Assembly (NCBI GenBank): GCA_963555985.3
Contig: CAUVXV020000008.1
Coordinates: 1-17,436 of the forward strand
Source of the DNA: Dehalococcoidia bacterium
Lineage (GTDB): Bacteria; Chloroflexota; Dehalococcoidia; Bin125
DNA length: 17,436 nt
Reading direction: 5' to 3'
In this document: positions 1 to 16,646 of the stretch, in pieces
How the letters are laid out: every line of letters starts with the position of its first letter
How positions within the stretch are numbered: the stretch's first letter is position 1
The notes under the pieces: model-generated
Told to the model about the DNA's origin: nothing
Databases searched by the model: none
Seen by the model: only the letters and a program-made list of their open reading frames with translations
Program-made: the position numbers and the translations under genes

Positions 1-25
1 ATGACGATACTTACTGAACCAGACC

Positions 26-256: not shown

Positions 257-294
257 GCCCACGAGCATATCCGCCGCGTTGATAGACTCGCCCC
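257..294. promoter_or_regulatory. Back-to-back divergent -10 elements, probably leaderless promoters
   Basis: Plus strand: TGA-TAGACT (280-288, extended -10) 6 nt before ATG 295. Minus strand: TATGCT (269-264) 7 nt before ATG 256. No Shine-Dalgarno for either gene. Confidence 0.55.
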
Positions 295-993: not shown

Positions 994-1441
994 CTGAGCA
1001 CAATGAAGCAACCGCTTGGCAAGTCCAAATCGACGCCGACGCCCGCGCCGCACTGGACAAGATGGGCACGATCGCCGTGATCGGCCTCTCCCCAAGACCG
1101 GAACGCGACTCCCATCGCGTCTCCGCCTACATGCAACAGCACGGCTACCGCATCATCCCCGTCAACCCCGCCGCCGTCGGTACGGAAATCCTGGGAGAGA
1201 CGGTCTACGCAGCGCTCGAAGACATCCCCCACGAGTTCGACACTGTCACGTCTTCCGCCGCTCGCACCAGACCGACAAGCCGATCGATGCGGCCATCGCC
1301 GCCCGCGCGCAGGGAGTGCGCCAGGTCTGGCTCCAACTCGGCATCGTCAACCCGGACGGTCTCCGCCGCGCCCGAGCCGCCGGTCTGCGCGCGATTGAGG
1401 ATCGCTGTCTGATGGTGGAGCATCGGCGGCTCGCTCAATAA
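990..1441 (+). CDS. CoA-binding protein, YccU-like (about 150 aa), with a one-base deletion frameshift near 1247
   Basis: One frame gives TIAVIGLSPRPERDSHRVSAYMQQHGYRIIPVNP...GETVYAALEDIP..FDTV. Another frame continues VFRRS...VWLQLGIVN...AGLRAIEDRCLMVEH*. These are the CoA_binding_2 family motifs. GTC-AC-GTC-TTC lacks one base. Confidence 0.88.
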
Positions 1442-1545
1442 CCTGCTCCGCCTATGTCAGCCTGCGCCGCGTTGGTATCAGCGCCCTGGCTGCGCTACAT
1501 TGCAGTCCCGGTAATCCCCGCCTGTTCGTCGAGGGGGGGTTGCAA

Positions 1546-3201
1546 ATGATCACCCCAGCGGTTTCGAGCGAGCGCGTGCATCAGCCGATCAACGCGGCCC
1601 ACTCTGCCCACGGTTGCGCTCCCGCCCTGCCCCAGCATCCCCGTTCCCCGGCGCTTGACGACGCTCCGCACGAGGCCTGCGGCGTCTTCGGTATCTGGTC
1701 GAGTGCGGTCGACGTCGCCCGCGCTACTTTCTACGGCCTCTACGCGCTCCAGCATCGCGGACAGGAGAGCGCCGGCATCTGCACCACCGACCGCGAGCAG
1801 CTCCGTGTCACGACCGGGATGGGGCTGGTTTCGCAGGTCTTCACCGAAGAGCAGGTCGAGCAACTCGATGGAGCCGCTGCTATTGGTCATAACCGCTATT
1901 CGACCACCGGATCCAGCCGCTACCGCAACGCCCAGCCGATCAAACTGACCGATCCCTACAGCGGCGAGGAAGTCGCGATCGCGCACAACGGCAATGTCGT
2001 CAACGCGGTCCAGGTCAAGGCGGAACAGCTCGAAGCCGGCCACCGCTTCGAGACCCAGACCGACACTGAAGTGCTGGCCAAATACATGCTCGATCAACCG
2101 GGCGACTGGCTCGCCCGCACGACCGCGCTGATGCGCCACATCCCCGTCGCCTACTCGTTGGTGCTGCTGACCAACGACCGCCTGATGGCGATCCGCGACC
2201 CCTACGGTGTGCGTCCGCTCTGCATCGGTGAGATTGACGGCGGCTACGTGATCGCCTCCGAGACCTGCGCGCTCAGCAACATCGGCGCGACCTATCTCCG
2301 CGAGGTACGCCCGGGTGAACTGGTGACAATCGACGACGACGGGCTGCGCAGCGCTCAGGCGCTCGAACCCGAACAGCCCGCAGGCTGTGTCTTCGAGCAC
2401 ATCTACTTCGCTCGCCCCGACTCCCAGCTCGACGGGCGCGCCGCCGCCGAATCGCGCGATCGCTTGGGCGCAGAGCTCGCCCGCGAACAGCCTGCCGAAG
2501 CCGATGTCGTGATCGGCGTGCCTGACTCCGCCACCACGCACGCGCTCGCCTACGCACGAGAATCGGGCCTCCCCTACGCCGAGGGACTGGTCAAGAATCG
2601 TTACGTCGGACGCACCTTCATCTCCCCGGATCAGCGCCTGCGCGACCTTGGCGCCCATCTCAAGTACAACACCGTCGATCAGTTCCTGGCCGGCAAGCGC
2701 GTGGTCGTGGTCGATGACACGATCGTGCGCGGCACCACCACGCCCCGGATCGTGCGCCTGTTGCGCGAAGCGGGCGCGACCGAAGTCCATATGCGCGTCG
2801 CCGCGCCCCCGATCCAGATGCCCTGCCACTACGGCGTCGATATGGCTTCGCGCTCCGAACTGCTCGCGGCCACGCACTCGGCAGAGGAGATCCGGCGACA
2901 TATCGAGGCCGACTCGATTGGCTACCTCAGCATCGAAGGGCTGAACCGCGCCCTTCAGCTCGGTAAAACGACCTGTCTCGCCTGTTTCAGCGGCAACTAT
3001 CCCGTCGCCGTCCAAGCCGACTTCGAGGAAGCCCGCGCGATTGATCACAGCGACCTCGCAGCCGCGGCTCCCCTGTATGTCAACGGCGCAGGTCGCAACG
3101 GACATACCCCGCACGAACCGTCCAACAACGGCCGCGGCGGTTGCCCCCGCTGCGATTTCAACGCGCACGCCGACCGTTCATTGGCGGTGGCTGCGCCCTA
3201 G
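1546..3201 (+). CDS. purF: Amidophosphoribosyltransferase (Fe-S, propeptide type)
   Basis: EA|CGVFG Ntn nucleophile, LQHRGQESAGI, IGHNRYSTTG, AHNGN, VVVDDTIVRGTT PRPP loop, Fe-S cysteines (CVFE, PCHYG, CLAC). ATG 1546 follows GAGGGGG; the exact start is uncertain. Confidence 0.97.
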   Translation: MITPAVSSERVHQPINAAHSAHGCAPALPQHPRSPALDDAPHEACGVFGIWSSAVDVARATFYGLYALQHRGQESAGICTTDREQLRVTTGMGLVSQVFTEEQVEQLDGAAAIGHNRYSTTGSSRYRNAQPIKLTDPYSGEEVAIAHNGNVVNAVQVKAEQLEAGHRFETQTDTEVLAKYMLDQPGDWLARTTALMRHIPVAYSLVLLTNDRLMAIRDPYGVRPLCIGEIDGGYVIASETCALSNIGATYLREVRPGELVTIDDDGLRSAQALEPEQPAGCVFEHIYFARPDSQLDGRAAAESRDRLGAELAREQPAEADVVIGVPDSATTHALAYARESGLPYAEGLVKNRYVGRTFISPDQRLRDLGAHLKYNTVDQFLAGKRVVVVDDTIVRGTTTPRIVRLLREAGATEVHMRVAAPPIQMPCHYGVDMASRSELLAATHSAEEIRRHIEADSIGYLSIEGLNRALQLGKTTCLACFSGNYPVAVQADFEEARAIDHSDLAAAAPLYVNGAGRNGHTPHEPSNNGRGGCPRCDFNAHADRSLAVAAP

Positions 3202-3213
3202 GTCAGGTTTCCT

Positions 3214-3246
3214 CCGTCATTCCCGCGCTCCGTCGCGGGAATCTCG
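3214..3246 (+). repeat. CGTC-type REP palindrome, copy 1
   Basis: CCGTCATTCCCGCG-CTCCGT-CGCGGGAATCTCG; related copies at 11786 and 13217. Confidence 0.85.
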
Positions 3247-3315
3247 CCGAGTGCTGCACCGTCGTTTCATCCTGAGGAAAGCCCGTCCGAATCGCTTGCG
3301 CAGGCGCAACCTCCT

Positions 3316-3356
3316 TGCTCATCACATCGAGATGCCTGCGGCAAACCCGGGGTATG
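3316..3356 (-). repeat. Degenerate inverted REP copy
   Basis: The minus strand reads CATACCCCGGGTTTGCCGCAGGCATCTCGATGTGATGAGCA, which aligns to CATACCCGCGCTCCGCCGCGGGTATCTCGATGTGAGCA at 11790-11827. Confidence 0.7.
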
Positions 3357-3453
3357 TGGGAGGTTGGGAATTCTGAATGGCTTGGCGTCTTCTGCTTGGA
3401 GGCCATGTGGACAAGCCCTAGCACACTCGGGCATCTCTCTTTAGCCTTGCGAC

Positions 3454-3474
3454 GGTGCATCAAATTGATGCACC
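3454..3474. promoter_or_regulatory. Perfect inverted repeat upstream of purM, candidate operator
   Basis: GGTGCATCAA-A-TTGATGCACC: 10-bp arms with a 1-nt spacer, ending 45 nt before the purM ATG. Confidence 0.55.
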
Positions 3475-3519
3475 AAGTATGCAGCGAGGGCACGTCCGCG
3501 TAGTTCCGGGAAGTCGACA

Positions 3520-4602
3520 ATGGTCACCCGCACACACCCGTCGCCTTTATCAGCGCCGCGATACGCCGATGCCGGCGTCAACGTGGACGAAAACGACCGC
3601 CTGATTCCGCAGTACCGAAAGCTTGCTGAGCTGGCTAGTCGGCCGGAAGTGATTGGCGGTGTGGGTCTCTTCAGTGGTGCCTTCGCGCTAGATCTCGCCG
3701 GGTACGAGCAGCCGACTCTCATCGCATCAACCGATGGTGTGGGAACGAAGGTGCTAGTGGCGAGCATGGCCGGTATCTTTGACGGCATTGGTCGTGATCT
3801 CGTCAATCACTGCATTGACGACGTAATCACGGATGGAGCAGAGCCTCTGTTCTTCTTGGACTACTTGGCAACAGGAGGACTCTCAGAGAGCAACAAGGTC
3901 GCGATCGTCCAGGGAGTAGCTGAGGCGTGTCATGAAAATGAGGTGGCGCTCTTAGGCGGCGAAACGGCTGACATGCCTGATCTCTACCCTCTTGGCGAAT
4001 TTGACCTCGCGGGGACCATGATCGGAGTCGTGGACCGCGAGAATCTGATCACAGGTAGTGAGATTCAGACTGGTGACGTCTTGCTTGGGTTGCCGAGCGA
4101 CGGGTTGCACACCAATGGATACTCCCTAGCTCGGGAAGTGTTCCATCTGCGCCCTACAGACGGACAACGCCAGGAGATACGCGACCAGCTGCTGGCGCAC
4201 GAGCCTGTTCTGGGTGAATCCCTTGCAGATGCCCTCCTGCGCCCGCATCGCGCGTATTGGACGGACCTGAGAGATCACTTGGCAGACATCAAAGGCATTG
4301 CACACATCACAGGCGGCGGGATCCCAGGAAATCTTGCGCGGATTTTGCCTGACGCTTGTGCTGCCGAGATTCAGCGTGGCACCTGGGATGAGCTGCCGAT
4401 TTTCGGGCTGATTCAGCAGCGCGGCATGATCTCAGACGAAGAGATGTTCCGGGTCTTCAATATGGGATTGGGCATGATTGTTGCCACGTCGGCAAGTGAG
4501 GCTGAATCCCTGTGCATGGCCTTGCCGGACGCCCGCGAGGTTGGGCGGATTGTCGACCGCAACACCGACACGCCACCCGTGACGATCATGGAGGTCTGTT
4601 GA
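3520..4602 (+). CDS. purM: Phosphoribosylformylglycinamidine cyclo-ligase (AIR synthetase)
   Basis: YADAGV, STDGVGTK, GAEPLFFLDY, LLGGETADMP, GLHTNGYSL, AHITGGG, FNMGLGM motifs. Confidence 0.97.
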   Translation: MVTRTHPSPLSAPRYADAGVNVDENDRLIPQYRKLAELASRPEVIGGVGLFSGAFALDLAGYEQPTLIASTDGVGTKVLVASMAGIFDGIGRDLVNHCIDDVITDGAEPLFFLDYLATGGLSESNKVAIVQGVAEACHENEVALLGGETADMPDLYPLGEFDLAGTMIGVVDRENLITGSEIQTGDVLLGLPSDGLHTNGYSLAREVFHLRPTDGQRQEIRDQLLAHEPVLGESLADALLRPHRAYWTDLRDHLADIKGIAHITGGGIPGNLARILPDACAAEIQRGTWDELPIFGLIQQRGMISDEEMFRVFNMGLGMIVATSASEAESLCMALPDAREVGRIVDRNTDTPPVTIMEVC

Positions 4603-4621
4603 GACCAAGTCGCGGTCAGAG

Positions 4622-4668
4622 AAGATCACAGGGGTGATCTTGACCGAGTATCAGCGCCGCCTTACATT
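4622..4668 (+). promoter_or_regulatory. Sigma70-type promoter with abutting palindromic operator for the Rieske/cytochrome b operon
   Basis: TTGACC (4640-4645), 17-nt spacer, TACATT (4663-4668). AAGATCAC-AGGG-GTGATCTT (4622-4641) overlaps the -35. Confidence 0.6.
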
Positions 4669-4735
4669 TTCTGAGCGCCCGTATCGAGCACGGCGGCGGG
4701 CGATTGGCCAACACCCATTGGGGGAGAGGTAGCCG

Positions 4736-4867
4736 GTGGACCTGCTCGTATCCGCCCTTGTCACGATTCCTTTCCGCTCCGAGATCATGGAGCTGCCGCT
4801 CGTCGGGCTGACGATGCTCTTCTGCTTCGGCGCGCTCGTCATCCTCGGACGCTGGTGGGAGCGCTAA
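4736..4867 (+). CDS. Small membrane protein (43 aa), first gene of the cytochrome operon; not in the ORF track
   Basis: GTG start after GGGAGAGG. Translation MDLLVSALVTIPFRSEIMELPLVGLTMLFCFGALVILGRWWER*. One TM helix; stop 6 nt before the cytochrome b ATG; GC-rich third positions. Confidence 0.7.
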   Translation: MDLLVSALVTIPFRSEIMELPLVGLTMLFCFGALVILGRWWER

Positions 4868-4873
4868 CCGACC

Positions 4874-5630
4874 ATGGCCAATCTCGAACGCGCACCGCGC
4901 AAGTCCATGAACGAGCAGCTCTACGACCTGCTCTTCAAAAACTACGTCTGGCAGTCGATCTTCCGCACCGGTTACCCGAACACCCCGCGTAATCAGATGC
5001 TCGCGGTGGCGACCAACGTCTTCCTCCATCTCCACCCCACGCGGATCCACCGCACCCACGTCAAGATCACCCACACCTACTGCCTCGGCGGTCTCTCCTT
5101 CTTCATGTTCCTCGGCCTCACCGTCACCGGGGTGCTCTTGATGTTCTACTACGTCCCCTCGGTCGAACGCGCCTATCAGGACATCCAGGCGCTCGAAACC
5201 AACGTCCGCTTCGGACAGCCTCCTGCGCAACATGCACCGCTGGATGGCGCACGCGATGATCATCCTCGTGCTCTTGCACATGATGCGCGTCTTCTACACC
5301 GGCGCCTACAAGCCCCCGCGTGAGTTCAACTGGGTCGTCGGCGTCGTCCTCTTCATCCTCACCCTGCTGCTCAGCTTCACCGGCTACCTCCTCCCCTGGG
5401 ATCAGCTCGCGTTCTGGGCCGTCACCGTCGGTACCACGATGGTCGGTTCGGCCCCGGTGCTCGGCGACGAGAGCAAGTTCCTGCTCCTGGGCGGCTTCTC
5501 GGTCGGCCCCGGCGCACTGATCCGCTTCTACACCCTGCATGTGATCGGGCTGCCGCTCGTGATCTCGATCTTCATGGCCGTCCACTTCTGGAGAGTGCGC
5601 CGCGACGGCGGACTCGCCCGGCCGCTGTAG
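4874..5630 (+). CDS. petB: Cytochrome b6-like subunit (about 251 aa) of a Rieske/cytochrome b complex, with a one-base insertion frameshift near 5219
   Basis: TYCLGGLSF...[15 protein letters not shown] in ORF 4874, continuing [11 protein letters not shown]...[41 protein letters not shown]...VHFW in ORF 5232. All four heme-ligand His are present. Confidence 0.93.
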
Positions 5631-5648
5631 CGCTGCGGAGCAGGCATC

Positions 5649-6548
5649 ATGGTCAGTCGCGCCGCTGCCGCCATTCGCACCCGCCCGCGCCGAGAGCGCG
5701 AGGCCGAAGTCTTGGTCTGGCCCGACCTCGTCTTCATCGAGTTCATCTCCGCCCTGATCTTCTCCGTCGCCCTGATGGTGCTCTCGGCGATGGTCAACGC
5801 GCCCTTGCTCAACCGCGCCGACCCCGACACCACGCCCAACCCTTCCAAAGCGCCCTGGTACTTCCTCAACCTCCAGGAACTGCTCCTCCACATGGAGCCC
5901 GCCTGGGCCGGTGTGATCGTGCCCACCATCGTCCTCGTCTTGCTCGCCGCCATCCCCTACTGGGATCGCGACACCGAAGGTCAGGGCGTCTGGTTCGGCA
6001 CCAAGTTCGCCGGACGCCTCGCCGTCTTCGGTTTCACCGCCTCGGTCATGATCACCAGCCTGCTGATCATCTACGACGGCTCGCTCCACGTGATCTGGAC
6101 CGAGAACATCATCCGCGGCCTTGGCCTCAACTCCGACTTCAGCTGGCCGGGAGGCCTCGACTGGTTCCGCAACCTGCGAGGACTTGATACCGGCATCCCT
6201 TGGGAGTCGATCGGTTTCACGATCGGCGACTTCAAGATGTTCGAGGACTGGCGAGCCATTCCCTTAGGCATCCCCGGCACCACCACCGATCCGTGGCTGC
6301 TCAACCTCAACTTCCCCTCCTTCCTCTCACAACAGCTCGTGCCTGTCGCCACCATGGTCGGCCTGCCCGTCCTCTTCGTGCTCTTCTGCAAGCTGCTCGG
6401 CTGGATTCAGACCCGCCGCGACATCGCCCTGCTCATCTTCTCGGCCTTCATCGGCGTCTACCTCACGACCACCATCGTCGGTACTGCCTTCCGCGGTCAG
6501 GGCCAGGACCTCAAGCCGCCCTGGGACATCGTGGTGTTGGAGGAGTAA
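5649..6548 (+). CDS. petD: Cytochrome b subunit IV (PetD/QcrC-like), C-terminally extended (299 aa)
   Basis: VWPDLV, ADPDTTPNPSKAPWYFL (PEWY-equivalent), LAAIPYWDR; adjacent to cytochrome b6. Confidence 0.85.
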   Translation: MVSRAAAAIRTRPRREREAEVLVWPDLVFIEFISALIFSVALMVLSAMVNAPLLNRADPDTTPNPSKAPWYFLNLQELLLHMEPAWAGVIVPTIVLVLLAAIPYWDRDTEGQGVWFGTKFAGRLAVFGFTASVMITSLLIIYDGSLHVIWTENIIRGLGLNSDFSWPGGLDWFRNLRGLDTGIPWESIGFTIGDFKMFEDWRAIPLGIPGTTTDPWLLNLNFPSFLSQQLVPVATMVGLPVLFVLFCKLLGWIQTRRDIALLIFSAFIGVYLTTTIVGTAFRGQGQDLKPPWDIVVLEE

Positions 6549-6551
6549 CAG

Positions 6552-7283
6552 GTGGCCAACGGATCAGATCAGTCCACGGGTGAAGGCGGACGCCAGCGCC
6601 GCCTGCCGGCCGCATCGGAGCCCTCCGGCGGCTCGCGCCCGCAACGCGCTCCGCATCTCGCCTCCACCGCCCGCCGCGGCGTGGTCGAAGCCGGCGCAGG
6701 CGAACGCGCGATCGTCACGCGCGCCCAGCGTCGTCGCGCCCGCCAGGGACAGGTCAGCCGGCGCCAACTCCTGCGCGTCTCCTTCTGGGGCTTCTTCACC
6801 TTCGGCCTCACCGGTGGACTCGGCGCCTTCCTCTCCAACTTCTGGCCACGCAACGTCACCGGCTTCGGCGGCAAGATCTCCGTCGCCGCCTCCGATGTCC
6901 CCGCCGCCGGCGACAACCCCGAACCGATCCAGATCGGCAAGTTCTACCTCGCCCACCTCCGCGCCGGCGAAGGTACCCACGCCGGCTTCGGCGAAGAAGG
7001 CGACGAGGGCCTGCTCGCGCTCTGGTGGAAGTGCCCCCATCTCGGTTGCACCATCCCCTGGCGGCCGGGCTTCCCCTTCGAGGGCGTCACCGGCTGGTTC
7101 CGCTGCCCCTGTCACGGCTCCACCTACACCCGCGGCGGCATCCGCGTCTTCGGACCCGCCCCGCGACCGATGGACACGATGGACATCACCGTCAACAACG
7201 ACGGCTCGCTCAGCGTCGACACCGGCAAAATCACCAAGGGCGGCCAGGACAACCCCAAGCGCACCACGAGCTACAACGTCTGA
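6552..7283 (+). CDS. petC: Rieske 2Fe-2S subunit with Tat signal anchor
   Basis: CPHLGC and CPCHGSTY boxes, GPAPRPM, SRRQLL twin-arginine motif followed by a TM helix; GGAGGAG upstream of the GTG. Confidence 0.93.
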   Translation: MANGSDQSTGEGGRQRRLPAASEPSGGSRPQRAPHLASTARRGVVEAGAGERAIVTRAQRRRARQGQVSRRQLLRVSFWGFFTFGLTGGLGAFLSNFWPRNVTGFGGKISVAASDVPAAGDNPEPIQIGKFYLAHLRAGEGTHAGFGEEGDEGLLALWWKCPHLGCTIPWRPGFPFEGVTGWFRCPCHGSTYTRGGIRVFGPAPRPMDTMDITVNNDGSLSVDTGKITKGGQDNPKRTTSYNV

Positions 7284-7301
7284 TCCGGCGCAACTGCCGG
7301 A
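7284..7301 (+). other. Intergenic stem-loop between the Rieske and cytochrome c genes
   Basis: TCCGGC-GCAACT-GCCGGA with no U-tract. Confidence 0.35.
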
Positions 7302-7346
7302 ACCAACCCAACCGCCAGCGACAGCAAAGGCAGTGGACATTCAGCC

Positions 7347-8411
7347 ATGACCGGACAGAACACCGAAAAGCAGATTCTTGCGATGGTGATCCTGCTCGTA
7401 TTGTCCGTCGCCTCCCTGGGCGCATATACCTGGTTCGACAACGGACGCCGCACCGAAGCCATCTCCGAGGTCTACGAGCGCGACGCCGAGCGCGGCGCCC
7501 ACATCTTCGCCCGCAACTGCCGCGTCTGCCACGGCAACGACGGCCGCGGCTCCGAATCCGACTCCTCCCTCGTCGGCCTCGCCCTCAACAAGCCCTCCAA
7601 CACCTACGCCTGGCGCACTGACAACGAGGGTCAGCTCCTCACCATCCAGAACCGCTTCCGCTACACCATCGCCTGCGGTCGCAACGGCACGCCGATGCCG
7701 CCCTGGTCGCTCGAACAGGGCGGCTCGCTCGACGACTTCAAGATCGACAACCTCGTCACCCTGATCACGACCAACGCCGGCGACGCCTGGCACGTCGCGA
7801 TCGAAGCCGCCAAGCACGAGGACGAAATCAACATCGACAACCTCCACATCGCCCTCGACGCCGCCACCGAGACGATGAACAAGTCCGGCTTCTTCCCCTC
7901 CGCCCGCGACGCCGAGGATGCCGTCAGAGTCTTCGAGGCGCGCGACGATGAGCTCAACGCTCTCCGCGTCGCCGTCGCTGAGGCGGAAGAGTCGGGCGAA
8001 GGCCTGGAAGAGGCGGAAGCAGCTCTCGCTGAATACGAGAAGCAGTACGGCGACCTCGTGCTCGCCGCAGTCGCCGTACGCACCTCATCCGCTCTCTCAG
8101 AACGCAACGCCGCCCAGACCCTGCTCAATTCCGCCTCCCGCGTACAGCGCGATGTCGCCGAGAAGCGTGCCTGGCTCAAGATCGCCGGTGAGTTCGAAAC
8201 CGCCCGCAGCAACGTCGAAACCGCCGAAGAACGATTCGCCCAGGGCCTCCCGATCGACCAGCCCCCCGCCCAAGTCACCGCCTCCACCTGCGGACAAGTC
8301 CACGACTTCAGCCAGTTCGACCTCTCCGACATCCCCGAACTCTCGACCGGTCAGGTCGGCGCAAACATCGGCGCGTGGTTGACCACCCTGCCTGAAGGCG
8401 ACGACAGCTAG
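7347..8411 (+). CDS. Membrane-anchored monoheme c-type cytochrome with a long helical C-terminal region
   Basis: N-terminal TM, GAHIFARNCRVCHG heme motif, GTPMPPW axial Met motif; last gene of the cytochrome cluster. Confidence 0.9.
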   Translation: MTGQNTEKQILAMVILLVLSVASLGAYTWFDNGRRTEAISEVYERDAERGAHIFARNCRVCHGNDGRGSESDSSLVGLALNKPSNTYAWRTDNEGQLLTIQNRFRYTIACGRNGTPMPPWSLEQGGSLDDFKIDNLVTLITTNAGDAWHVAIEAAKHEDEINIDNLHIALDAATETMNKSGFFPSARDAEDAVRVFEARDDELNALRVAVAEAEESGEGLEEAEAALAEYEKQYGDLVLAAVAVRTSSALSERNAAQTLLNSASRVQRDVAEKRAWLKIAGEFETARSNVETAEERFAQGLPIDQPPAQVTASTCGQVHDFSQFDLSDIPELSTGQVGANIGAWLTTLPEGDDS

Positions 8412-8504
8412 ACGACCCAGCCCCGCTCGCAAGTCTGCCTTACCCCTAACCCACCGTTCACGTATTCTGAGCCTCTAGGCCCGCTCAGTGAGGAGATACC
8501 CAAG

Positions 8505-8624
8505 ATGGCAGCCCAAACCGGCAAGCGTTACTTCTGTCCCAGCTGCGGCGCGGAGTTCATCGTCACCCGCGGCGGCGAGGCCGACCTCAAGTGCGGCGAC
8601 ACCCCCCTCGAACAAAAGAAGTAA
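8505..8624 (+). CDS. 39-aa desulforedoxin/zinc-ribbon-like microprotein A; not in the ORF track
   Basis: AGGAGA RBS. Translation MAAQTGKRYFCPSCGAEFIVTRGGEADLKCGDTPLEQKK*, with CxxC-x15-C. Confidence 0.85.
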   Translation: MAAQTGKRYFCPSCGAEFIVTRGGEADLKCGDTPLEQKK

Positions 8625-8669
8625 CCACGCCCGACCGAACCACGCTCCCAAGCTTCCAGGAGACCCCAG

Positions 8670-8813
8670 ATGGCAGTCCAACTCGGCAAGCGCTACCGCG
8701 ACGAACAAACCGGCATCGAAGTCCTCTGCATCAAGCCCGGCGAGTGCGACCTCAAGGTCGACGAGCGCGAGATGGAACTGATGCAGCCCAAAGTCCTCCC
8801 CTCCGCCGACTAG
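8670..8813 (+). CDS. 47-aa microprotein B, paralog of A; not in the ORF track
   Basis: AGGAGA RBS. Translation MAVQLGKRYRDEQTGIEVLCIKPGECDLKVDEREMELMQPKVLPSAD*. 15 of 39 positions are identical to A in an ungapped alignment. Confidence 0.85.
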   Translation: MAVQLGKRYRDEQTGIEVLCIKPGECDLKVDEREMELMQPKVLPSAD

Positions 8814-8849
8814 CTGCGATCCGCCCACAGCCCTAGCCGGCCGCCGCTC

Positions 8850-9326
8850 ATGCCCGACACGCTTCGAGACCGCCTCCGCAACGACCTCCGCGATGCCATG
8901 CGCGCGCGCGACGCCATGCGCCGCAACACCATCCGGATGCTCGAAGCCGCGATCAAGAACGCCGAAATCGAACGCCGCCAGAAGAACACCGATCTCGCCG
9001 AAGCCGACGTCCTCGCCATCCTCCAACGCCAGGTCAAACAGCGCCGCGACTCAATCGAGCAGTTCGAGCAGGGCGGACGCGACGACCTTGCCGAGAAGGA
9101 ACGTGCCGAGATCGCCGTGATCGAGACCTACCTGCCCCAACAACTCTCGCGCGGGCAGGTGCTCGAGCGCGCCCGCGCCGTCGCCGAACAGGTCGACGCG
9201 AGCGGCCCCGGCGATCGCGGCAAGGTCATGGGCCCGCTCATGCGCGAACTGCGCGGAATCGCCGACGGCGCAATGGTCAACGCGGTCGTCGGCGAGTTGC
9301 TGGCCGAACTCGCTCAGGCGGAATGA
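8850..9326 (+). CDS. yqeY: GatB/YqeY domain protein
   Basis: LRDAMRARD..R..TIRML.AAIKN.EI, KQRRDSIEQF..GGRDDLAEKE.AEI.VI..YLPQQLS, GKVMG. Confidence 0.93.
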   Translation: MPDTLRDRLRNDLRDAMRARDAMRRNTIRMLEAAIKNAEIERRQKNTDLAEADVLAILQRQVKQRRDSIEQFEQGGRDDLAEKERAEIAVIETYLPQQLSRGQVLERARAVAEQVDASGPGDRGKVMGPLMRELRGIADGAMVNAVVGELLAELAQAE

Positions 9327-9442
9327 CGCGCCGCGCAACCAGACCCGCCTCCTATCTGGTCTGTATGATGAATTCTGCCTGAACGCGCCTGCTCGCGTGC
9401 CCAAACGATCCCCGCACACGAGCCGACCCAGGCGGAATGACC

Positions 9443-11669
9443 ATGGTCCGACCGACATACTTCACCGCCTGGCGAGTCGGTATCTTCGCAATTGCCCTCG
9501 CGATCGGGGATCGTCCTCGCGCTCACGCCCTTCCGCCGCGCCGAACAGTTCCCCGCGCTCGGAGCCGAGGCCGAGCGCGATGTTGTCGCCGGACACGACG
9601 TCACCTTTCGCAGCCCCACCCTGACCGAAGAAGCGCGCACTGAGGCGCGGGAGCGCGCCGAACCCCAATTCGCCTACGACACCGGCGTCCGTTCCTCCCA
9701 ACTCGAAGCCTTGCGGCGCTATCTCACCGATGTCATCGCCGCCCGCGCCGCCCAAGAATCCACGCTCGCAGCCGAATCGGGCGCGACCGCAGAACCGGAC
9801 GCCGCCGCTGAGACGGACACGTCCGAAACCCAGGCCCCAACCGATACCGCTAACCCGGCCGCTGCTCCGCCAGCTCCGCTCGCCAACTCCCGCCTCTCGA
9901 TCCGCGACGAGCAACAACTCATCGCAATCGAGCGCCCCCGCTTCGTCGTCATCCACGAAGAATCGCTGCGTACCCTCGACCTCCTGCTCCAGCGGGAGCT
10001 CTATCCGCTCGATGTCGAGAGCCTGCGCCTACGCCTCAACGACCAACTCAGCCCCCAACTCCCCTTCACCGAGTCAGCCCTGGTCGCCACGTTGGTCGGA
10101 GCCTACCTGCGCCCGACCATGGCCGAAGACGCGATCCTCACCGAGGCTGCCCGCGATCGCGCCGCCGACGCGGTTCCCTCGGTCTCGCGCAGCTTGGTGG
10201 AGGGCGAGCTTGTCGTCGAACGCGGTCAGATCGTCGATCCGCTCGCAGCCGAGGCGCTCGCCGCCCTCACCCCAGACAGCGGCGGGATCGAGTTGGAATC
10301 GCTCGGCGCAGTCGTCATCCTCGGACTCGCCGCCGCAACCGCCTTCGGTCTCTATCTCTATCTCGGCCGCCCCCAGGCCGTGGCCAGCGATCGACGCTTG
10401 ATCCTGCTCGCCTTCCTCGTCCTCCTCTCCGTCATCGCCGCTCGCGCCTGGTTCGAGTTCGCCCTCCCCGACGGACGTGGGCAGTCGCTCGATCTGATGA
10501 TCCCGCTGGCGGCCGGAGCCGTCTTGGTCGCCGCCCTGCTCAGCACCGCACTCGGCGTGATGACCGGCGTGCTGATCGCCGCCCTCGCCGGTTTCGCCGC
10601 CATCGCGCTCCCCAACTACCCTCTGGATCCCATCGGACCGCAAGCCCTCCGCCCCTTCGCCTTCTTCCTCGTCAGCAGCCTCGGTGGCGTCCTCGTCGCC
10701 GCCCGCGCGCAGGCCCTCGCTCAATACGGACTGGCCGGCCTCGCCGCCGGGACCACCGGGTTTCTCGTCGGCGCCGCCTTCTGGCTGCTCGATCCCGACC
10801 GCGCGACCGACCAGCTCGGCTGGCTCGCCCTGGCCGCGATCGTCACCGCCGCCGGAGCAGCCGTGATCATCATCGGAGCCTTCTCCCTGCTCGGAGCGCT
10901 CTTCGGCATCACGACCCCGATGCGCCTGCTCGAACTCGCGCAGCTGCAACGACCGCTCCTGCGCCGGCTGCAAGATGAAGCGCCCGGCACCTTCCACCAT
11001 TCCCTCCTGGTCGCCACGCTCGCCGAGCGCGCCGCCGCCCAGATCGGCGCCGACGCGCTCCTCGTCCGCGTCGGCGCCTACTACCACGACATCGGCAAGC
11101 TCCACCATCCCGCCATGTTCATCGAAAACCAGGGCGAGAGCGGCAATCCCCACGAAGACCTGAACCCCAGGGACAGCGCGCAGGTCATCATCGCCCATGT
11201 CCACGAGGGCGACATGCTCGCCAGACGCGGACGCCTCCCCCTGGCAATCCGCGACTTTATCAACGAACACCACGGTTCCCGCCGCGTCACCTACTTCTAC
11301 CGCAAGGCCGCCCTGGCCGATCCACGCACCGATCCCACCTGGTACACCTACGCCGGACCGCCCCCCCAGTCCCGCGAAACCGCCATCGTCATGCTCGCCG
11401 ACAGCTGCGAAGCCGTCGTCCGCGCCAGCCGCGAACAAGACCCCCAAACCATCAGCCTGCTCGTAGACAGCGTCATCGACGAGCGCCTGCGCGAACGCCA
11501 ACTCGACGAATGCGACCTCACCCTCCGAGAACTCCAACAAATCAGCGCCAGCTTCAAACAAACCCTCAACGGAGTCCACCACCAAAGAATCGAATACCCC
11601 CCAGCCAGCGAAGCCGAGCGCCGAGAACAAACCACCCGAGCCGCCCCCGCCCCCACGCCCCCGTCATAA
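9443..11669 (+). CDS. 7TM-HDIG membrane phosphohydrolase (PgpH/YqfF-like, possible cyclic-di-AMP phosphodiesterase), with a one-base insertion in GGGG at 9506-9509
   Basis: Removing one G joins MVRPTYFTAWRVGIFAIALAIG to IVLALTPF into one TM helix. Extracellular domain, about 7 TM helices, EAPGTFHHS, GAYYHDIGK, FIENQ, HHG, YAGPPPQSRETAIVMLADSCEA. Confidence 0.9.
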
Positions 11670-11818
11670 CCCACCCGTCATAACCCACCCGTCATCCCCA
11701 CTCCCAACCAGCTCCGTCATACCCACGCTCGATAACTCTGTCATACCTGCACCCAGAAATCCGTCATACCCGCGCCCAACCAACTCCGTCATACCCGCGC
11801 TCCGCCGCGGGTATCTCG
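11661..11818 (+). repeat. Tandem array of 7 CCGTCAT-headed REP units ending in one complete palindrome
   Basis: Units start at 11661, 11675, 11689, 11714, 11738 (CTGTCAT), 11761 and 11786. The last is CCGTCATACCCGCG-CTCCGC-CGCGGGTATCTCG. Confidence 0.85.
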
Positions 11819-11844
11819 ATGTGAGCACTACCAACCTCCAACCC

Positions 11845-11908
11845 TCACCCCACCTCCCCAAAATCTCCCCCTCAAGGGGGAGATGCCCCAGAGGGGTAGA
11901 GGGGGTGA
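11845..11908. repeat. Second, different nested palindromic element
   Basis: ATCTCCCCCT-CA-AGGGGGAGAT (11863-11884), then GCCCC-AGA-GGGGT, enclosed by TCACCCC (11845-11851) and GGGGTGA (11902-11908). Confidence 0.65.
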
Positions 11909-11955
11909 AACGCCACATCAAACCCCCAACGACAACCACAACACACCCAACCAGT

Positions 11956-11985
11956 TTGCAACCCGAACATCAGAACATATAAACT
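11956..11985 (+). promoter_or_regulatory. Putative sigma70 promoter of the orphan gene
   Basis: TTGCAA, 18-nt spacer, TAAACT in an A-rich stretch; GAAAGGA RBS before ATG 12029. Confidence 0.45.
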
Positions 11986-12028
11986 CACCTATCCAAAACA
12001 CAGGTTCCCAAGAAAGGAACACCCCGCC

Positions 12029-12385
12029 ATGCCCTTCGACTACACCTACCAGTCCACCATGTCCGGCGTCGGCCAACTCGCCCACTCCGAGGAAGCCGGC
12101 CACGTCCGCATCAAAGCGCTCGCCCTCCTCATCCGCGAACTCTCCCCCTCCAACGCCAAGACCCGCGAGATCCACCACGCGCTCGACCTCCAACCCCATC
12201 CCGAACCCGCGCCCAAACCCCGAGCCAACCACTCCCCCCGCCTGCCCGAAGCGCCGCTCACCCCTGAGCAGAAGAAAGAACTCCACCTCCATCCCCACGC
12301 CATCGCCGTGGCCCTGATGCGCGGCGAAGACGTCCCTCTGCCGGACGACGACGACAGCCTCGAAGAAGAGGAAGAGCCGCAGTAA
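12029..12385 (+). CDS. Hypothetical protein (118 aa, Pro-rich linker, acidic tail)
   Basis: AAAGGA RBS, codon usage like its neighbours, candidate promoter. No family recognised. Confidence 0.7.
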   Translation: MPFDYTYQSTMSGVGQLAHSEEAGHVRIKALALLIRELSPSNAKTREIHHALDLQPHPEPAPKPRANHSPRLPEAPLTPEQKKELHLHPHAIAVALMRGEDVPLPDDDDSLEEEEEPQ

Positions 12386-12551
12386 TCCCCCGACCGCAAG
12401 CGGCGACCCCCTCGTTTTTTTTTCTCACCGCCCCGTCAGGCCGCGAACCGCGACCATCCAGTCCCTACCGTGCCCGCACCCCCAATCAGCCCCTGACACA
12501 ATGCTCCGATAGCATCTAATCGAGACCCCAACGACCAAGCCGGAGTCCCCC

Positions 12552-13214
12552 GTGCGCTTCGCCGTCCTCGTCTTCCCAGGTACCTGGAGCGACCACGACT
12601 GCGTCCACGCCCTCCAAGACCTCGGCCAAACCGCCGAGCGCGTCTGGCACCGCGAATCCAACCTCGATCGCTACGACGGCGTCATCCTCCCTGGAGGCTT
12701 CTCCTACGGCGACCACCTCCGCTGCGGAGCCATCGCCCGCTTCTCCCCCGTCATGCTCGCCCTCGAACGCTTCGCCCAATCAGGACGCCCCGTCTTCGGC
12801 TCCTGCAACGGCTTCCAAATCCTCTGCGAAGCCGGACTCCTCCCCGGCGCGCTCATCCGCAACGCCTCCCTCCAGTTCCGCTGCCAACCGCAAATGCTCC
12901 GTGTCGAACACGCCGACAGCGGCTTCACCAGCGCCTGCGAAGACGGACAACTCCTCCAACTCCCCATCTCCCACGGCGAGGGCCAATACCACGCAACACC
13001 CGAAGTCCTCGACGAACTCGAAGACGCCGGCCGCGTCCTCTTCCGCTACCACGGCGAGAACCCCAACGGCTCCCTCCGCGACATCGCCGGCATCCTCAAC
13101 CCCCAGGGCAACATCCTCGGCATGATGCCCCACCCCGAACGAGCCTCTGACTCCCTCCTCGGCGGTACCGACGGCAACTACATCTGGCGCTCCATCATCG
13201 ACCGCTGGAGCTAA
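12552..13214 (+). CDS. purQ: FGAM synthase glutaminase subunit
   Basis: FAVLVFPG, LPGGFSYGD, GSCNGFQILCE.GLLPG, SHGEG, NPNGS, GMMPHPER (Cys-His-Glu triad); GGAG RBS. Confidence 0.97.
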   Translation: MRFAVLVFPGTWSDHDCVHALQDLGQTAERVWHRESNLDRYDGVILPGGFSYGDHLRCGAIARFSPVMLALERFAQSGRPVFGSCNGFQILCEAGLLPGALIRNASLQFRCQPQMLRVEHADSGFTSACEDGQLLQLPISHGEGQYHATPEVLDELEDAGRVLFRYHGENPNGSLRDIAGILNPQGNILGMMPHPERASDSLLGGTDGNYIWRSIIDRWS

Positions 13215-13216
13215 AT

Positions 13217-13245
13217 CCGTCATTCCCGCGAAGGCGGGAATCTCG
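13217..13245 (+). repeat. CGTC-type REP palindrome, copy 3
   Basis: CCGTCATTCCCGC-GAAG-GCGGGAATCTCG, 2 nt after the purQ stop. Confidence 0.85.
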
Positions 13246-13327
13246 AACCTCCCACTTCGCTCACGGCACAACCTGCGACGTACTCCTCAGCTCAGTCTGC
13301 ACACACCCCGCACGAAACTACCCCGCC

Positions 13328-15589
13328 ATGCCCACCTACCCACCCCCTACGCACGCCCCTCCAGCCCCCATCAACGACGGTATCCTCGCCCAGATCGCCC
13401 TGAGCCGCGACGAGTACGAGCGCGCCCGCAACATGCTCGGACGCGAACCCTCCGAAGTCGAACTCGGCATGATCGGCGCGCTCTGGAGCGAGCACTGCGG
13501 CTACAAACACTCTCGCCCTCTCTTCCACCACTTCCCCACCGAAGACGAACGCATCCTCACCAGCCTCGGCGAAGAGAACGCCGGTGCCATCGCCATCGGC
13601 GAAGGCTGGGTCGCGGTGATGAAGATCGAATCCCACAATCACCCCTCCGCAATCGAACCCTATGAAGGCGCAGCCACCGGCGTCGGCGGCATCGTCCGCG
13701 ACATCTTCGCCATGGGCGCGCAACCGATCGCTCTGCTCGACTCCCTCCGCTTCGGCCCGCTCGATGACCCCGACGGAGGCCGCCGCAACCGACGCCTCTG
13801 CACCGGCGTCGTCGCCGGCATCGGCGGCTACGGCAACTGCCTCGGCATCCCCACCATCGGCGGCGAACTCGTCTTCGGCGACTCCTACAGCGGCAACCCT
13901 CTGGTTAACGCCATGTGCCTCGGCGTCGCCCCGCGCGGACAACTGATCTCCGCCACCGCCGGCCCGCCCGGTACCCGCCTCATGATCGTCGGCGCAGACA
14001 CCGGCCGCGACGGGCTGCACGGCGCCACCTTCGCCTCAGTCGAACTGGACGAATCCTCCGCCGAACGCCGCCCCGCCGTCCAGGTTGGCAACCCCTTCCT
14101 CGAAAAGCTGCTCATGGACGCCTGCGTCGGACTGGTCCGCGACCACCGCGACTGGATCGAGGGACTCCAGGACTGCGGCGCAGCCGGCATCACCTCCTCA
14201 ACCGTCGAAATGGCCGAACGCGCCGGCGCTGGCATCCACATCCAGACCGCCAACGTCCCCCGCCGCGAGACCGGCATGACCCCCTACGACGTAATGCTCT
14301 CCGAGTCGCAGGAGCGCATGATCGTTGCCGTCAAGCCCGATCACGTCGCCGATGTCGCCGAGTGGTTCGCCTACTGGGACCTCCACGCCGACGAGATCGG
14401 CGAGGTCACCGACGACGGCATTGCCCGAGTCTTCGACGGCGACGCCGAAGTCGCCGCCATCCCGGTCGGCATCCTCACCACCCCGCCCGCCTATACGCCT
14501 GAAGCAATCCGCGACCCCGACGCCGCCCAACGAGCCGCCTTCGATCCAGCAACTCTCCCCGACCTCGAACCCGCCGAAGCGAGCGACGCCCTGCTCCAAC
14601 TCCTCGCCTCGCCCAACATCGCCTCCAAGCGCTGGGTCTACCGCCAGTACGACCACCAGGTCGGCACCAACACCGTGATCACCCCCGGCTCCGACGCCGC
14701 CGTCCTGCGCCTGCGCGGACTCCAACAAGGACTCGCGCTCTGCACCGACGGCCCCGGTCGCGCCGTCGAGCTCGACCCCTACGCCGGTACCGCCCGCGCC
14801 GTCGCCGAAGCCGCTCGCAACGTTGCTTGCACCGGCGCACGCCCCGCCGCCGTCACCGACTGCCTCAACTTCGCCAACCCCGAACGTCCGCACATCTACT
14901 ACCAGCTGAGCCAGGCCATCCAGGGCATGGCCGACGCCTGCCGAACCCTCGCTACCCCCGTCGTCAGCGGCAACGCCAGCCTCTACAACGAGTCCGAAGA
15001 CGGCCCCGTCGCCCCAACCCCCGTCGTCGGAATGCTGGGCATCCTCAAAGATGTGCGCCAGGCACTCCCAATGGCTTTCCAGTCCGAAGGCGACGAAATC
15101 TGGCTGCTAGGCGCAGACCTGGAGCAACCAGCCTCAACGCTAGGCGGCAGCGAGTATCTGGCAGTCAGGCACGGTCTCGTAGCGGGGCCGATCACAGTCG
15201 ATCTGAACGCCGAGCGAGCGCTGGTCGACACCCTCGTCGAAGCAGCCGAAGCCAACCTCCTCAAGTCAGCCCACGACTGCTCCGACGGAGGTCTGGCCGT
15301 CGCAATCGCCGAGTCTGCAATCGCAGGCGAGATCGGCGCAGAAGTGAAAGCAATCACCGGTCGTCTCGACGCAGCCCTCTTCGGCGAAGCCGGAGCGCGA
15401 GCAGTTGTGACTCTGGCGGCGGATCAAAGCGAAGCTCTGCTCCGGCTCGCAGCGCGGCATGGGCTAGGAGCCACACCGATCGGAACAGTCGGCGGAGATC
15501 GTCTGCTGCTCGAAGGTTCGATCGACCTTCCCATCAACGCGATTGCAGAAGAATGGCAATCAGCTCTACCCAGACTGCTCGACGCCTAG
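13328..15589 (+). CDS. purL: FGAM synthase synthetase subunit (small-type PurL)
   Basis: WSEHCGYK, KIESHNHPS, GAATGVGGIVRDI, TGRDGLHGATFAS, QDCGAAG, LSESQERM, SKRWVYRQYDHQV, DCLNFANPE, SAHDCSDGGL. Confidence 0.97.
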   Translation: MPTYPPPTHAPPAPINDGILAQIALSRDEYERARNMLGREPSEVELGMIGALWSEHCGYKHSRPLFHHFPTEDERILTSLGEENAGAIAIGEGWVAVMKIESHNHPSAIEPYEGAATGVGGIVRDIFAMGAQPIALLDSLRFGPLDDPDGGRRNRRLCTGVVAGIGGYGNCLGIPTIGGELVFGDSYSGNPLVNAMCLGVAPRGQLISATAGPPGTRLMIVGADTGRDGLHGATFASVELDESSAERRPAVQVGNPFLEKLLMDACVGLVRDHRDWIEGLQDCGAAGITSSTVEMAERAGAGIHIQTANVPRRETGMTPYDVMLSESQERMIVAVKPDHVADVAEWFAYWDLHADEIGEVTDDGIARVFDGDAEVAAIPVGILTTPPAYTPEAIRDPDAAQRAAFDPATLPDLEPAEASDALLQLLASPNIASKRWVYRQYDHQVGTNTVITPGSDAAVLRLRGLQQGLALCTDGPGRAVELDPYAGTARAVAEAARNVACTGARPAAVTDCLNFANPERPHIYYQLSQAIQGMADACRTLATPVVSGNASLYNESEDGPVAPTPVVGMLGILKDVRQALPMAFQSEGDEIWLLGADLEQPASTLGGSEYLAVRHGLVAGPITVDLNAERALVDTLVEAAEANLLKSAHDCSDGGLAVAIAESAIAGEIGAEVKAITGRLDAALFGEAGARAVVTLAADQSEALLRLAARHGLGATPIGTVGGDRLLLEGSIDLPINAIAEEWQSALPRLLDA

Positions 15590-15630
15590 CGGCCTGGCTA
15601 GACTGGCTGCACTGACACGGAGAGGCACAG

Positions 15631-16638
15631 ATGGTCGCCGCACGGCGTGACTTTGAAGAACTCTTGCTGGAGCACGGCTTCTCGCCCGAACGCGCCCACT
15701 ACTGGGCATCCGCGCTCGAACGCGCTGCTCATGCGGTCACGCAGGAGGAGTTCGAGGCTGGTCTCGAGCGGGCGATTGAGCGAATGACTGCGGTCATGCG
15801 CGAGGAGTTCGCCAAGCGCGATGTCGAAATTGCTGCGCTCAGGACCCAACTCCAATACCTCATCGATCAGCGTCAGGAGGACCTCGATCGCCTACAAGCC
15901 CAGCGTCATGAAGACCTGGAGCGCGGGCGCGCCGAGCGTCAGGAACTCATCGATCGCCTAAATGCGGAGCGTCAGGAGGACCTTGAGCGCAGACGCACGG
16001 AGCGCCAGGAAGACCTGGAACGCTCGCAGGCTGAGCACCAGGAATTCATCGATCGCCTAAATGCGGAGCGCCAGGAAGACCTTGAGCACTCGCAGGCCGA
16101 TAGCGAGCGCTTGCGCGCGGAGCGCCAGGAAGACCTCGAGCGCTCGCAGGCCGATAGCGAGCGCTTGCGCGCGGAGCGCCAGGAAGACCTCGAGCGCTCG
16201 CAGGCCGATAGTGAGCGCTTGCGCGCGGAGCGCCAGGAAGACGTCGAGCGCTTGCGCGCGGAGCGCCAGGAAGACCTGGAACGCTTGCAGGCCGATAGCG
16301 AGCGCTTGCGCGCGGAGCGCCAGGAGGACCTGGAGCGCTCACAGGCCGATAGCGAGCGCTTGCGCGCGGAGCGCCAGGAGGACCTGGAGCGCTCACAGGC
16401 CGATAGCGAGCGCTTGCGCGCGGAGCGCCAGGAGGACCTCGAGCGCTTGCGCGCGGAGCGCCAGGAAGACCTGGAACGCCTACGCATTCAACGCCAGGAA
16501 GACCTCGAACGTCTGCGTATCCAGCGCCAGGAGGACCTTGAGCGAGAGCGTGCCGCTCGCCAAGAGCGCCGCGCCATTGCTCTCGCCTTGGGCGGCACGC
16601 TGATCGCGCTACTCCTGAGAGTCTTCGGCGCGATCTAG
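15631..16638 (+). CDS. Coiled-coil tandem-repeat protein with C-terminal membrane anchor (DUF1640/CCDC90-like architecture)
   Basis: GGAGAGG RBS; short N-terminal head (LLEHGFSPERA), long RQEDLERL-type stalk, terminal hydrophobic AIALALGGTLIALLLRVFGAI. Confidence 0.82.
   Translation: MVAARRDFEELLLEHGFSPERAHYWASALERAAHAVTQEEFEAGLERAIERMTAVMREEFAKRDVEIAALRTQLQYLIDQRQEDLDRLQAQRHEDLERGRAERQELIDRLNAERQEDLERRRTERQEDLERSQAEHQEFIDRLNAERQEDLEHSQADSERLRAERQEDLERSQADSERLRAERQEDLERSQADSERLRAERQEDVERLRAERQEDLERLQADSERLRAERQEDLERSQADSERLRAERQEDLERSQADSERLRAERQEDLERLRAERQEDLERLRIQRQEDLERLRIQRQEDLERERAARQERRAIALALGGTLIALLLRVFGAI
15871..16545 (+). repeat. Intragenic 33-bp and 54-bp tandem repeats
   Basis: 11-aa RAERQEDLERL and 18-aa RAERQEDLERSQADSERL units, near-identical at DNA level from about 16063 to 16470. 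Confidence 0.95.
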
Positions 16639-16646
16639 TGCGGCAA

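Follow-up and report, generated by a model that had tools for sequence, protein, structure and literature searches.

Two microprotein genes in the window

We describe here two very small genes, A and B, that lie side by side on a contig from a Dehalococcoidia bacterium of the phylum Chloroflexota (GenBank assembly GCA_963555985.3, contig CAUVXV020000008.1, positions 1 to 17,436); the whole stretch of 17,436 nucleotides is referred to as the window, and the genome to which it belongs as G000. An initial annotation, made from the nucleotide sequence alone, had singled out the pair as tandem paralogues resembling desulforedoxin and had proposed that they form a heterodimeric metal or redox module, or that the C-terminal tail of B is a carrier or docking handle. 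The deep association of the pair is with one subfamily of acyl-coenzyme A (CoA) ligases, and not with the cytochrome bc genes that precede it in the window.

The two open reading frames (ORFs), of 39 and 47 codons on the forward strand, lie where the initial annotation had placed them, each behind an AGGAGA ribosome-binding site of its own (Table 1), and a recount of the ungapped alignment of the two products gives the same 15 identities over 39 positions. The cysteine layout is also as described. Product A contains C11, C14 and C30, the last followed by a Gly where the second Cys of the CC pair stood, and keeps three of the four ancestral cysteine ligands; its C-terminus is basic and ends in KK. 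Product B keeps none of the four, with D11, T14, V30 and D31 at the corresponding columns; DEQT takes the place of the CxxC motif, its own cysteines are C20 and C26, and its last residues are LPSAD. There is no hydrophobic segment in either product. Among 20 aligned A-type proteins, G6, K7, Y9, C11, C14, E17, V20, T21, G24, C30 and K38 are invariant.

Table 1. Coordinates of the A and B genes and of the other features of the window
Feature	Position	Strand	Basis or remark
AGGAGA ribosome-binding site of A	8491-8496	+	8 nt upstream of the A ATG; read from the sequence
Gene A, 39-residue desulforedoxin-like microprotein	8505-8624	+	ORF read from the window
AGGAGA ribosome-binding site of B	8658-8663	+	6 nt upstream of the B ATG; read from the sequence
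Gene B, 47-residue desulforedoxin-fold microprotein	8670-8813	+	ORF read from the window
Codons of the B C-terminal tail QPKVLPSAD, with the free Asp carboxylate at its end	8784-8810	+	Family hallmark
Rieske/cytochrome b6-type operon	4874-8411	+	Upstream syntenic neighbour of A-B
petB-like	4874-5630	+	Pfam; frameshifted in the window
petD-like	5649-6548	+	Pfam
Rieske	6552-7283	+	Pfam
Cytochrome c	7347-8411	+	Pfam
yqeY (GatB/YqeY-domain protein)	8850-9326	+	Pfam PF09424, E 2.8e-46; 36 nt past B
purF, purM	1540-4602		
purQ, purL	12552-15589		
Repeat	11760-12480		~550-730 bases
ORF of 335 residues	15631-16638		No clear family
Tandem repetition	15869-16447		Inside the 335-residue ORF

A and B are conserved genes of the desulforedoxin superfamily

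Homologues of B were matched in 38 of 41 related genomes, including 24/24 of the window's own family, and the 91 protein clusters recovered with B are all unnamed or 'hypothetical'. A search with A (the 39 residues plus one extra upstream codon) recovered 66 clusters, many of them with the Pfam family PF06397 (desulfoferrodoxin N-terminal domain). The earlier description of the pair as unannotated is only partly right, since NCBI and JGI records carry homologues as 'hypothetical protein' and a few homologues of A as 'desulfoferrodoxin'. The ratio of non-synonymous to synonymous substitution rates (dN/dS), averaged over pairs among 20 orthologues, is 0.13 in A and 0.07 in B, with dS at ~0.9. 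Both are real genes under strong purifying selection, and these ratios of 0.07-0.13 speak against decaying pseudogenes. Contigs from RNA libraries span A and B (X21, window 8489-8819) and A, B and yqeY (X22, window 8464-9148), which is a hint of expression only, since such libraries can contain DNA; the contigs come from three libraries of one study and from relatives that are ~88-92% alike. The junction between cytochrome c and A is in no RNA-library contig compared, record 20 of X22 ending at 8411 with unlike letters, and a gap in a single study of relatives at this distance proves nothing.

The pair lacks the four-cysteine CxxC...CC site that defines the desulforedoxin superfamily and falls short of its curated score cutoffs. 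A scores 17.8 bits on PF06397 against a cutoff of 23, B has no Pfam or NCBIfam match, and NCBIfam offers nothing useful for either product, TIGR00319 matching neither of them. Relatives with four cysteines do pass the PF06397 cutoff (P0166 at 34 bits, P0158 at 42.7 bits), the score of 34 bits being that of a four-cysteine B-type protein. The relationship shows when profiles and structures are compared: the A-type and B-type profiles align to each other with an hhalign probability of 99.6% (E 5.8e-25), and the B-type profile reaches, with E values of 1.4e-5 and 0.0062 respectively, desulfoferrodoxin (1vzg) and desulforedoxin (1cfw). The B protein of the window was modelled with AlphaFold2 at a mean predicted local distance difference test score (pLDDT) of 84.2, and among 48,161 chains the best match of the model in the PDB is desulforedoxin 1cfw_A (Z 4.8, root-mean-square deviation 1.5 Å, 36/36 residues; next row Z 3.1), the Z values being low because the domain has only 36 residues. 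The model of a relative in which A and B are fused (P0162; pLDDT 92.7, predicted template modelling score 0.81) has two small beta domains, and its B-half matches 1cfw_A at Z 3.9 and 0.7 Å over 36/36 residues. Foldseek found no match to this fused model in the PDB at E<=0.001, and the all-against-all aligner alone recovered desulforedoxin; the ESM Atlas returned unnamed clusters only, the best of which (0.92) is probably the protein's own. A and B are thus placed, on fold and on profile homology alike, within the desulforedoxin superfamily as paralogues that have diverged, as first proposed.

The closest described relatives are desulforedoxin of Desulfovibrio gigas (PDB 1dxg/1cfw) and the Desulfoferrod_N family (PF06397, TIGR00319), which have fold and sequence homology in common with A-B. 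The domain is of the same size (~36 residues), the CxxC...CC site of desulforedoxin is still present in distant members of the A-B family, and a dimeric organisation is plausible, desulforedoxin being a homodimer where A-B would be a heterodimer or a fused pseudo-dimer. Unlike desulforedoxin, the system described here comprises two distinct paralogues in a fixed A-B order with three and none of the four iron ligands respectively, and B carries a nine-residue extension with an invariant terminal Asp that lies outside PF06397. The conserved genomic partner is also different, an acyl-CoA ligase and not the superoxide reductase domain of desulfoferrodoxin.

A and B as a probable unit and the loss of the metal ligands

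Versions of both proteins with the full set of four cysteines occur in distant genomes of the same class, in Desulfobacterota and in Acidobacteriota. These are 38-40 and 47 residues long, are encoded in the order A then B, and the B-type protein ends in ...P[KR]x[LIV]PS[SA]D. By this comparison, the family to which the window belongs is a degenerate branch. The pairing and its order are themselves conserved. A and B are adjacent in 78/80 species-genome loci, the other two being interrupted by a contig end, and both were recognised in 40/41 sources, with A first in all but one; the diverse A-B alignments have no conserved stretch of 7-10 columns, and the locus scans therefore used subsets that are biased to members with an 'LCTK' stretch (see below).

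In one relative (L039) A and B are joined in frame through a linker, and this arrangement is widespread. The B-type profile matches 1425 representative clusters (50% identity) at E<=0.001, in Chloroflexota, Desulfobacterota, Acidobacteriota and at least one Streptomycetaceae genome, and ~50 among the best 149 of the 1425 are fusions of 80-110 residues in which a variable linker joins an A-like half to a C-terminal B-like half. A search of longer proteins scored 2082, mostly fused forms, and the best 120 of these 2082 are all 84-155 residues long. A fusion of A or B to a large enzyme was sought among the same best 120 and none is present; a 493-residue ORF in L038 that could be taken for one looks like upstream read-through.

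A predicted complex of the window's A and B scores 0.41 against 0.02 for the best control, with at least 97% of contacts agreeing between runs and a partner pLDDT of at least 71. The mark that it passes is reached by 116/157 solved complexes and by 2/215 mismatched pairs, although at scores of 0.60 or lower it is reached by only 18/157 of the solved complexes and by both of the passing mismatches. We take the prediction as weak support for pairing, and the pass may reflect likeness to desulforedoxin because the desulforedoxin homodimer has been solved. With the conserved order, the common fusions and this weakly supportive model taken together, A and B very probably act together as one unit.

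The notion of a heterodimeric module survives in this sense, but the metal site that A and B were supposed to complete from complementary partial cysteine sets does not. In close homologues the positions of C20 and C26 of B are occupied by V/I and A/G/V respectively, and since these cysteines are not conserved a shared site is not supported. C20 does not represent a new ligand, because it is also the usual residue of four-cysteine B-types, where it lies within an E[VI]LCTK ('LCTK') stretch. Two further observations speak against a shared site, namely that the four-cysteine relatives have two complete and independent sites, and that some fused relatives have as few as 0-1 ligand cysteines in total. 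Over the eight ligand columns, the 50 fused forms range from 4+4 (2/50) down to 0+1, and the commonest state is 2+0 (15/50). Judged by these alignments, the metal appears to be dispensable and the tail does not.

Such a history has a precedent in zinc-ribbon ribosomal proteins, for which Makarova and colleagues are said to have described, in 2001, cysteine-containing and cysteine-free paralogues of L31, L33, L36 and S14. There, as in A-B with its series from 4+4 to 0+1, the metal cysteines have been lost repeatedly with fold and function kept; the fold and the cellular role are different, and the precedent is only for a metal site that is structural and dispensable.

The C-terminal tail of B

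The terminus that the initial annotation had written as PS[AS]D is the most conserved feature of B. Among the best 149 of the 1425 B-type representatives, 133 have a terminal Asp, and the commonest endings within these 149 are LPSSD (72), LPASD (14) and LPSAD (12). The last nine residues of B, QPKVLPSAD, are invariant in 22/22 close homologues, and an alignment of 20 diverse B-types shows P44, S45 and D47 in every one of them. All 50 of the fused proteins also end in Asp, but this set was pre-selected for a terminal D, so that 50/50 is circular and 133/149 is the unbiased figure. The tail is probably flexible, because the last seven residues of the B model have a pLDDT of ~63. A phosphopantetheine-type serine was considered and rejected, as the position of the Ser shifts between SSD, ASD and SAD. 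The Ser moves and the terminal Asp does not, which suggests that what matters functionally in B is the free acidic end, with small residues leading up to it.

Association with an acyl-CoA ligase subfamily

A gene that recurs beside A and B in distant genomes encodes an AMP-forming acyl-CoA-ligase-like enzyme of ~500-520 residues. It lies directly upstream of A in 18/80 genome loci, in Desulfobacterota and Dehalococcoidia, where the usual order is two enoyl-CoA hydratases, ligase, A, B, two family-III CoA-transferases and a convergent Amidohydro_3 amidohydrolase gene. In soil-type metagenomes the ligase comes immediately after the fused form in 18/40 loci with at least 1.5 kb downstream, and where both flanks are available the ligase is somewhere in the locus in 18/25. 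Seven Chloroflexota genomes from outside the class Dehalococcoidia have the ligase adjacent to A-B in every case (7/7); four of the seven share the order hydratase, CoA-transferase-like, hydratase, ligase, A, B, Amidohydro_3, and Amidohydro_3 directly follows B in 5/7. One genome, G088 (L206), has the order B-ligase-A. In G031, four of ~7 A-B pairs lie beside an AMP-binding ligase gene, and a second search found ligase matches beside five. Gene order differs between lineages, and adjacency to the ligase is kept.

The repetition within G031 (L032, L034-L038) is an observation in its own right: this 5.6-Mb genome of the class Dehalococcoidia has ~7 A-B pairs and at least four to seven ligase copies, mostly adjacent to one another.

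The ligases found beside split pairs, beside the pairs of G031 and beside fused forms are 34-47% identical to one another (266-486 bits), the next G000 paralogue scoring 152-284 bits, and by sequence they form one subfamily. The ligase is itself uncharacterised: among NCBIfam models it comes nearest to the generic PRK06187 (456 bits, where the cutoff is 476), and the closest solved relatives are FadD5, MenE and the feruloyl-CoA, malonyl-CoA and oxalate-CoA ligases. In G000 there is one clear orthologue, C1:207424-208995 (45% identity; 450 bits, the next paralogue scoring 284), with an enoyl-CoA hydratase gene directly upstream that is 47-53% identical to the hydratase of the operons in other classes. 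The hydratase-ligase pair (C1:206643-208995) is unlinked from A-B. A ligase orthologue is present in 24/24 genomes of the same family at 63-94% identity, always far from the pair.

The co-occurrence of ligase and pair extends to genomes in which the two are apart. In 301 evenly sampled Chloroflexota genomes the B-type profile is found in 25, full length in 19 and as a tail-less partial match in six. The ligase, at E<=1e-110, is present in 14/301, all of them within the 19 genomes with a full-length B and in 0/282 of the others; in 7/14 of the genomes having both, the ligase and A-B loci are unlinked.

Another G000 locus, C1:330215-338564, encodes two tandem Amidohydro_3 proteins and a family-III CoA-transferase that are the best matches (31-40% identity) to the enzymes flanking A-B elsewhere. 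These genes may encode the remainder of the pathway, which would since have become scattered over the genome.

A possible adaptor of the ligase

The explanation that we favour, and to which we give about an even chance, is that A-B is a non-redox adaptor of the ligase built on the desulforedoxin fold, with the Asp tail as its handle. A and B would make up a small two-domain unit, a heterodimer in this organism and, in numerous other bacteria, one chain with a linker between A and B. Because the metal sites have decayed to three and none of the four ligands in this lineage, the unit may be a protein-binding adaptor rather than a redox centre. Its conserved partner would be the ligase subfamily together with the enoyl-CoA hydratase, and ancestrally also the family-III CoA-transferases and the Amidohydro_3 amidohydrolase, and we infer that the flexible C-terminus of B, ...LPS[AS]D-COOH, physically engages the ligase.

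MbtH-like proteins, which are small activators of non-ribosomal peptide synthetase adenylation domains, offer a comparison for an arrangement of this kind. They resemble A-B in their size (~50-100 residues) and in being encoded beside, and co-duplicated with, enzymes of the ANL superfamily, as are the ~7 modules of ligase and A-B in G031. However, the fold is different, the partners of A-B are acyl-CoA ligases in operons that look catabolic and act on CoA esters, and the conserved C-terminal Asp tail is without a counterpart in MbtH. The MbtH family is absent from the Pfam matches at E<=1 for A, for B and for the fused relatives.

Several points weigh against the adaptor explanation. The pair and the ligase are 150-280 kb apart in the window genome and its family, where the pair stands between the cytochrome bc operon and yqeY, and in ~25 loci of Dehalococcoidales the pair follows carB-pyrK-UPF0047 and 4 kb of flanking sequence contain no ligase. 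Among the 19 genomes having a full-length B, five (G037, G178, G280, G288 and G304) have no ligase at E<=1e-110; this threshold was picked after the gap in scores had been seen, and the co-occurrence counts were made over related genomes and overstate independence. The metagenome loci are often those of close relatives, with adjacent ligases that are 84-100% identical. Moreover, A keeps three cysteines and may bind metal, and for the four-cysteine relatives the role of an electron carrier beside CoA-ester dehydrogenases fits the neighbourhood equally well.

The tail as a possible carrier

The rival explanations that we have considered rank, by their odds, as a carrier or substrate role, then an accessory role in the cytochrome bc complex, then a residual metal or redox role. 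Under the first of these, which we consider unlikely, B would be a protein-borne handle: the ligase would activate or ligate at the carboxylate of the terminal Asp, or attach a substrate to it, the pathway enzymes would act on the tethered group, and the co-operonic Amidohydro_3 would release it. The logic would resemble that of LysW, whose partners are an ATP-dependent enzyme for carboxylate activation and a hydrolase for release, although the activating enzyme would be a different one. Points in favour are the near-universal Asp that follows small residues with a varying Ser, the probable flexibility of the tail (pLDDT ~63), and the 5/7 operons of other Chloroflexota classes in which Amidohydro_3 directly follows B. 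The conserved partner is itself an ATP-dependent carboxylate-activating enzyme, and MenE, malonyl-CoA synthetase and oxalate-CoA ligase, which activate dicarboxylates, are among the solved proteins closest to it. However, the other genes of the operons, the hydratases and CoA-transferases, are ordinary enzymes of small-molecule CoA esters, and we know of no ANL-family enzyme that acts on a protein C-terminus.

The likeness to LysW and ArgW consists in a small globular domain of zinc-ribbon type with an acidic C-terminal end, and in the ligase and amidohydrolase that flank A-B in the ancestral operon. The differences are that the LysW model NF041070 is unmatched (its cutoff is 75 bits, of which A reaches 13.1, and B gives no match), that A-B has the desulforedoxin fold and ends in a single terminal Asp and not in a Glu-rich tail, and that the neighbouring enzyme is of the ANL type and not an ATP-grasp enzyme. 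Neither the window nor the related neighbourhoods contain a LysX/ArgX-type ATP-grasp gene or genes of lysine or arginine biosynthesis, CarB being the sole ATP-grasp protein seen.

A still less likely and more specific form of the idea is that B, held by A, is a new kind of handle, on whose terminal Asp carboxylate the ANL-type ligase would perform ATP-dependent chemistry (adenylation, thioesterification or amide ligation) that Amidohydro_3 would reverse or release. By analogy this would be the carrier logic of LysW and of ubiquitin-like proteins, transferred to a metal-free desulforedoxin fold and an activating enzyme of the acyl-CoA-synthetase type.

The cytochrome bc neighbourhood

The gene order in the window is purF, purM, petB-like, petD-like, Rieske, cytochrome c, A, B, yqeY, a 7TM-HD protein, the repeat, purQ and purL, and the initial annotation had left a link between A-B and the upstream cytochrome operon unproven. 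On this arrangement one could propose that A-B serves the Rieske/cytochrome b6-c complex, with which it would be co-expressed, as an accessory subunit or an assembly factor, which seems to us improbable. Cytochrome c was detected upstream in 17/20 loci of the same family, and the bc operon also precedes the pair in G025 (a four-cysteine pair), G030 (a fusion), G034 and G039. A scan of 7300-9600 for promoters and terminators found nothing on either strand, and hence no terminator-like site between operon and pair, but with neither kind of signal detected it is uninformative on transcription units. However, yqeY is at least as constant a neighbour, directly downstream in 20/20 of the same loci, cytochrome c and A are separated by 93 nt, and A and B each have their own ribosome-binding site and lack a hydrophobic segment. 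Away from a small number of Dehalococcoidia families, no bc genes adjoin the pair in any of the loci examined (80 genome loci, 80 metagenome loci and the seven loci from other classes), and the A-B family is common in anaerobes whose loci show no bc operon. The consistent co-location, wherever the protein occurs, by which a bc subunit would be recognised is therefore not found, and the link to the bc operon is one of local synteny, limited to a few Dehalococcoidia families.

The surroundings of the pair have some further features. The pur genes bracket the block formed by the bc operon, A-B, yqeY and the 7TM-HD gene, and this respiratory block looks inserted into a pur cluster. The petB-like gene is split between two frames near 5217/5218 but forms a single intact 248-residue frame in the C1 copy, and the frameshift is either a sequencing error or a variant. 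The last gene of the bc operon varies between genomes: in G025 (L021, 4865-6145, reverse strand) cytochrome c is fused to a cupredoxin domain and followed by a second cupredoxin gene, and in G039 (L040, 2293-3945, forward strand) it carries LysM domains. The window (contig C9) is a second copy of G000 C1:410072-427052, 94-99% identical to it, and A and B are accordingly present twice in the assembly; the duplicate is probably a strain-variant contig binned with the genome (7.5% contamination). The repeat has at least 15 further copies on C1 at 84-91% identity, contains ORFs without a Pfam match and may be a small mobile or repeated element. The tandem repetition shows self-match offsets of 54 and ~100 bases at 77-90% identity.

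Possible residual metal binding

In a third rival explanation, A would bind iron or zinc through its three cysteines and the pair would be an electron carrier or metal sensor, for which one can point to the invariance of C11, C14 and C30 in all 20 aligned A-types, to the four-cysteine relatives that reach the PF06397 threshold, and to neighbours elsewhere that include acyl-CoA dehydrogenases, aldehyde:ferredoxin oxidoreductase and PyrK; we regard this as very improbable, given that the ligand-less B is the more constrained of the two (dN/dS 0.07), that fused relatives with 0-2 ligand cysteines keep the remaining sequence and the tail, and that the fourth ligand of A is a Gly whose following Asp is unconserved and is itself replaced by Gly in 3/20 loci.

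Significance

We have found no family name, family model or published description for A-B, either in the databases or in the titles and abstract openings of the literature, and to this extent the initial view of the pair as undescribed is borne out. The microprotein family is large (1425 representative clusters, with 2082 longer forms scored), and there is no model for its cysteine-poor members. Genes as small as these are often missed or left as 'hypothetical', a gap that would be closed by a family model covering the tail and the forms without cysteines. A-B offers a case in which a classic iron-binding fold would have been reused without its metal, and it links an uncharacterised operon of acyl-CoA ligase, hydratase and amidohydrolase to a dedicated small partner. 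Docking of the tail into the ligase, or its processing there, would, if true, be a new way to control or use an adenylate-forming enzyme, and would in that case also open a functional way into a CoA-ester pathway that is widespread among bacteria of soils, the sea and the subsurface.

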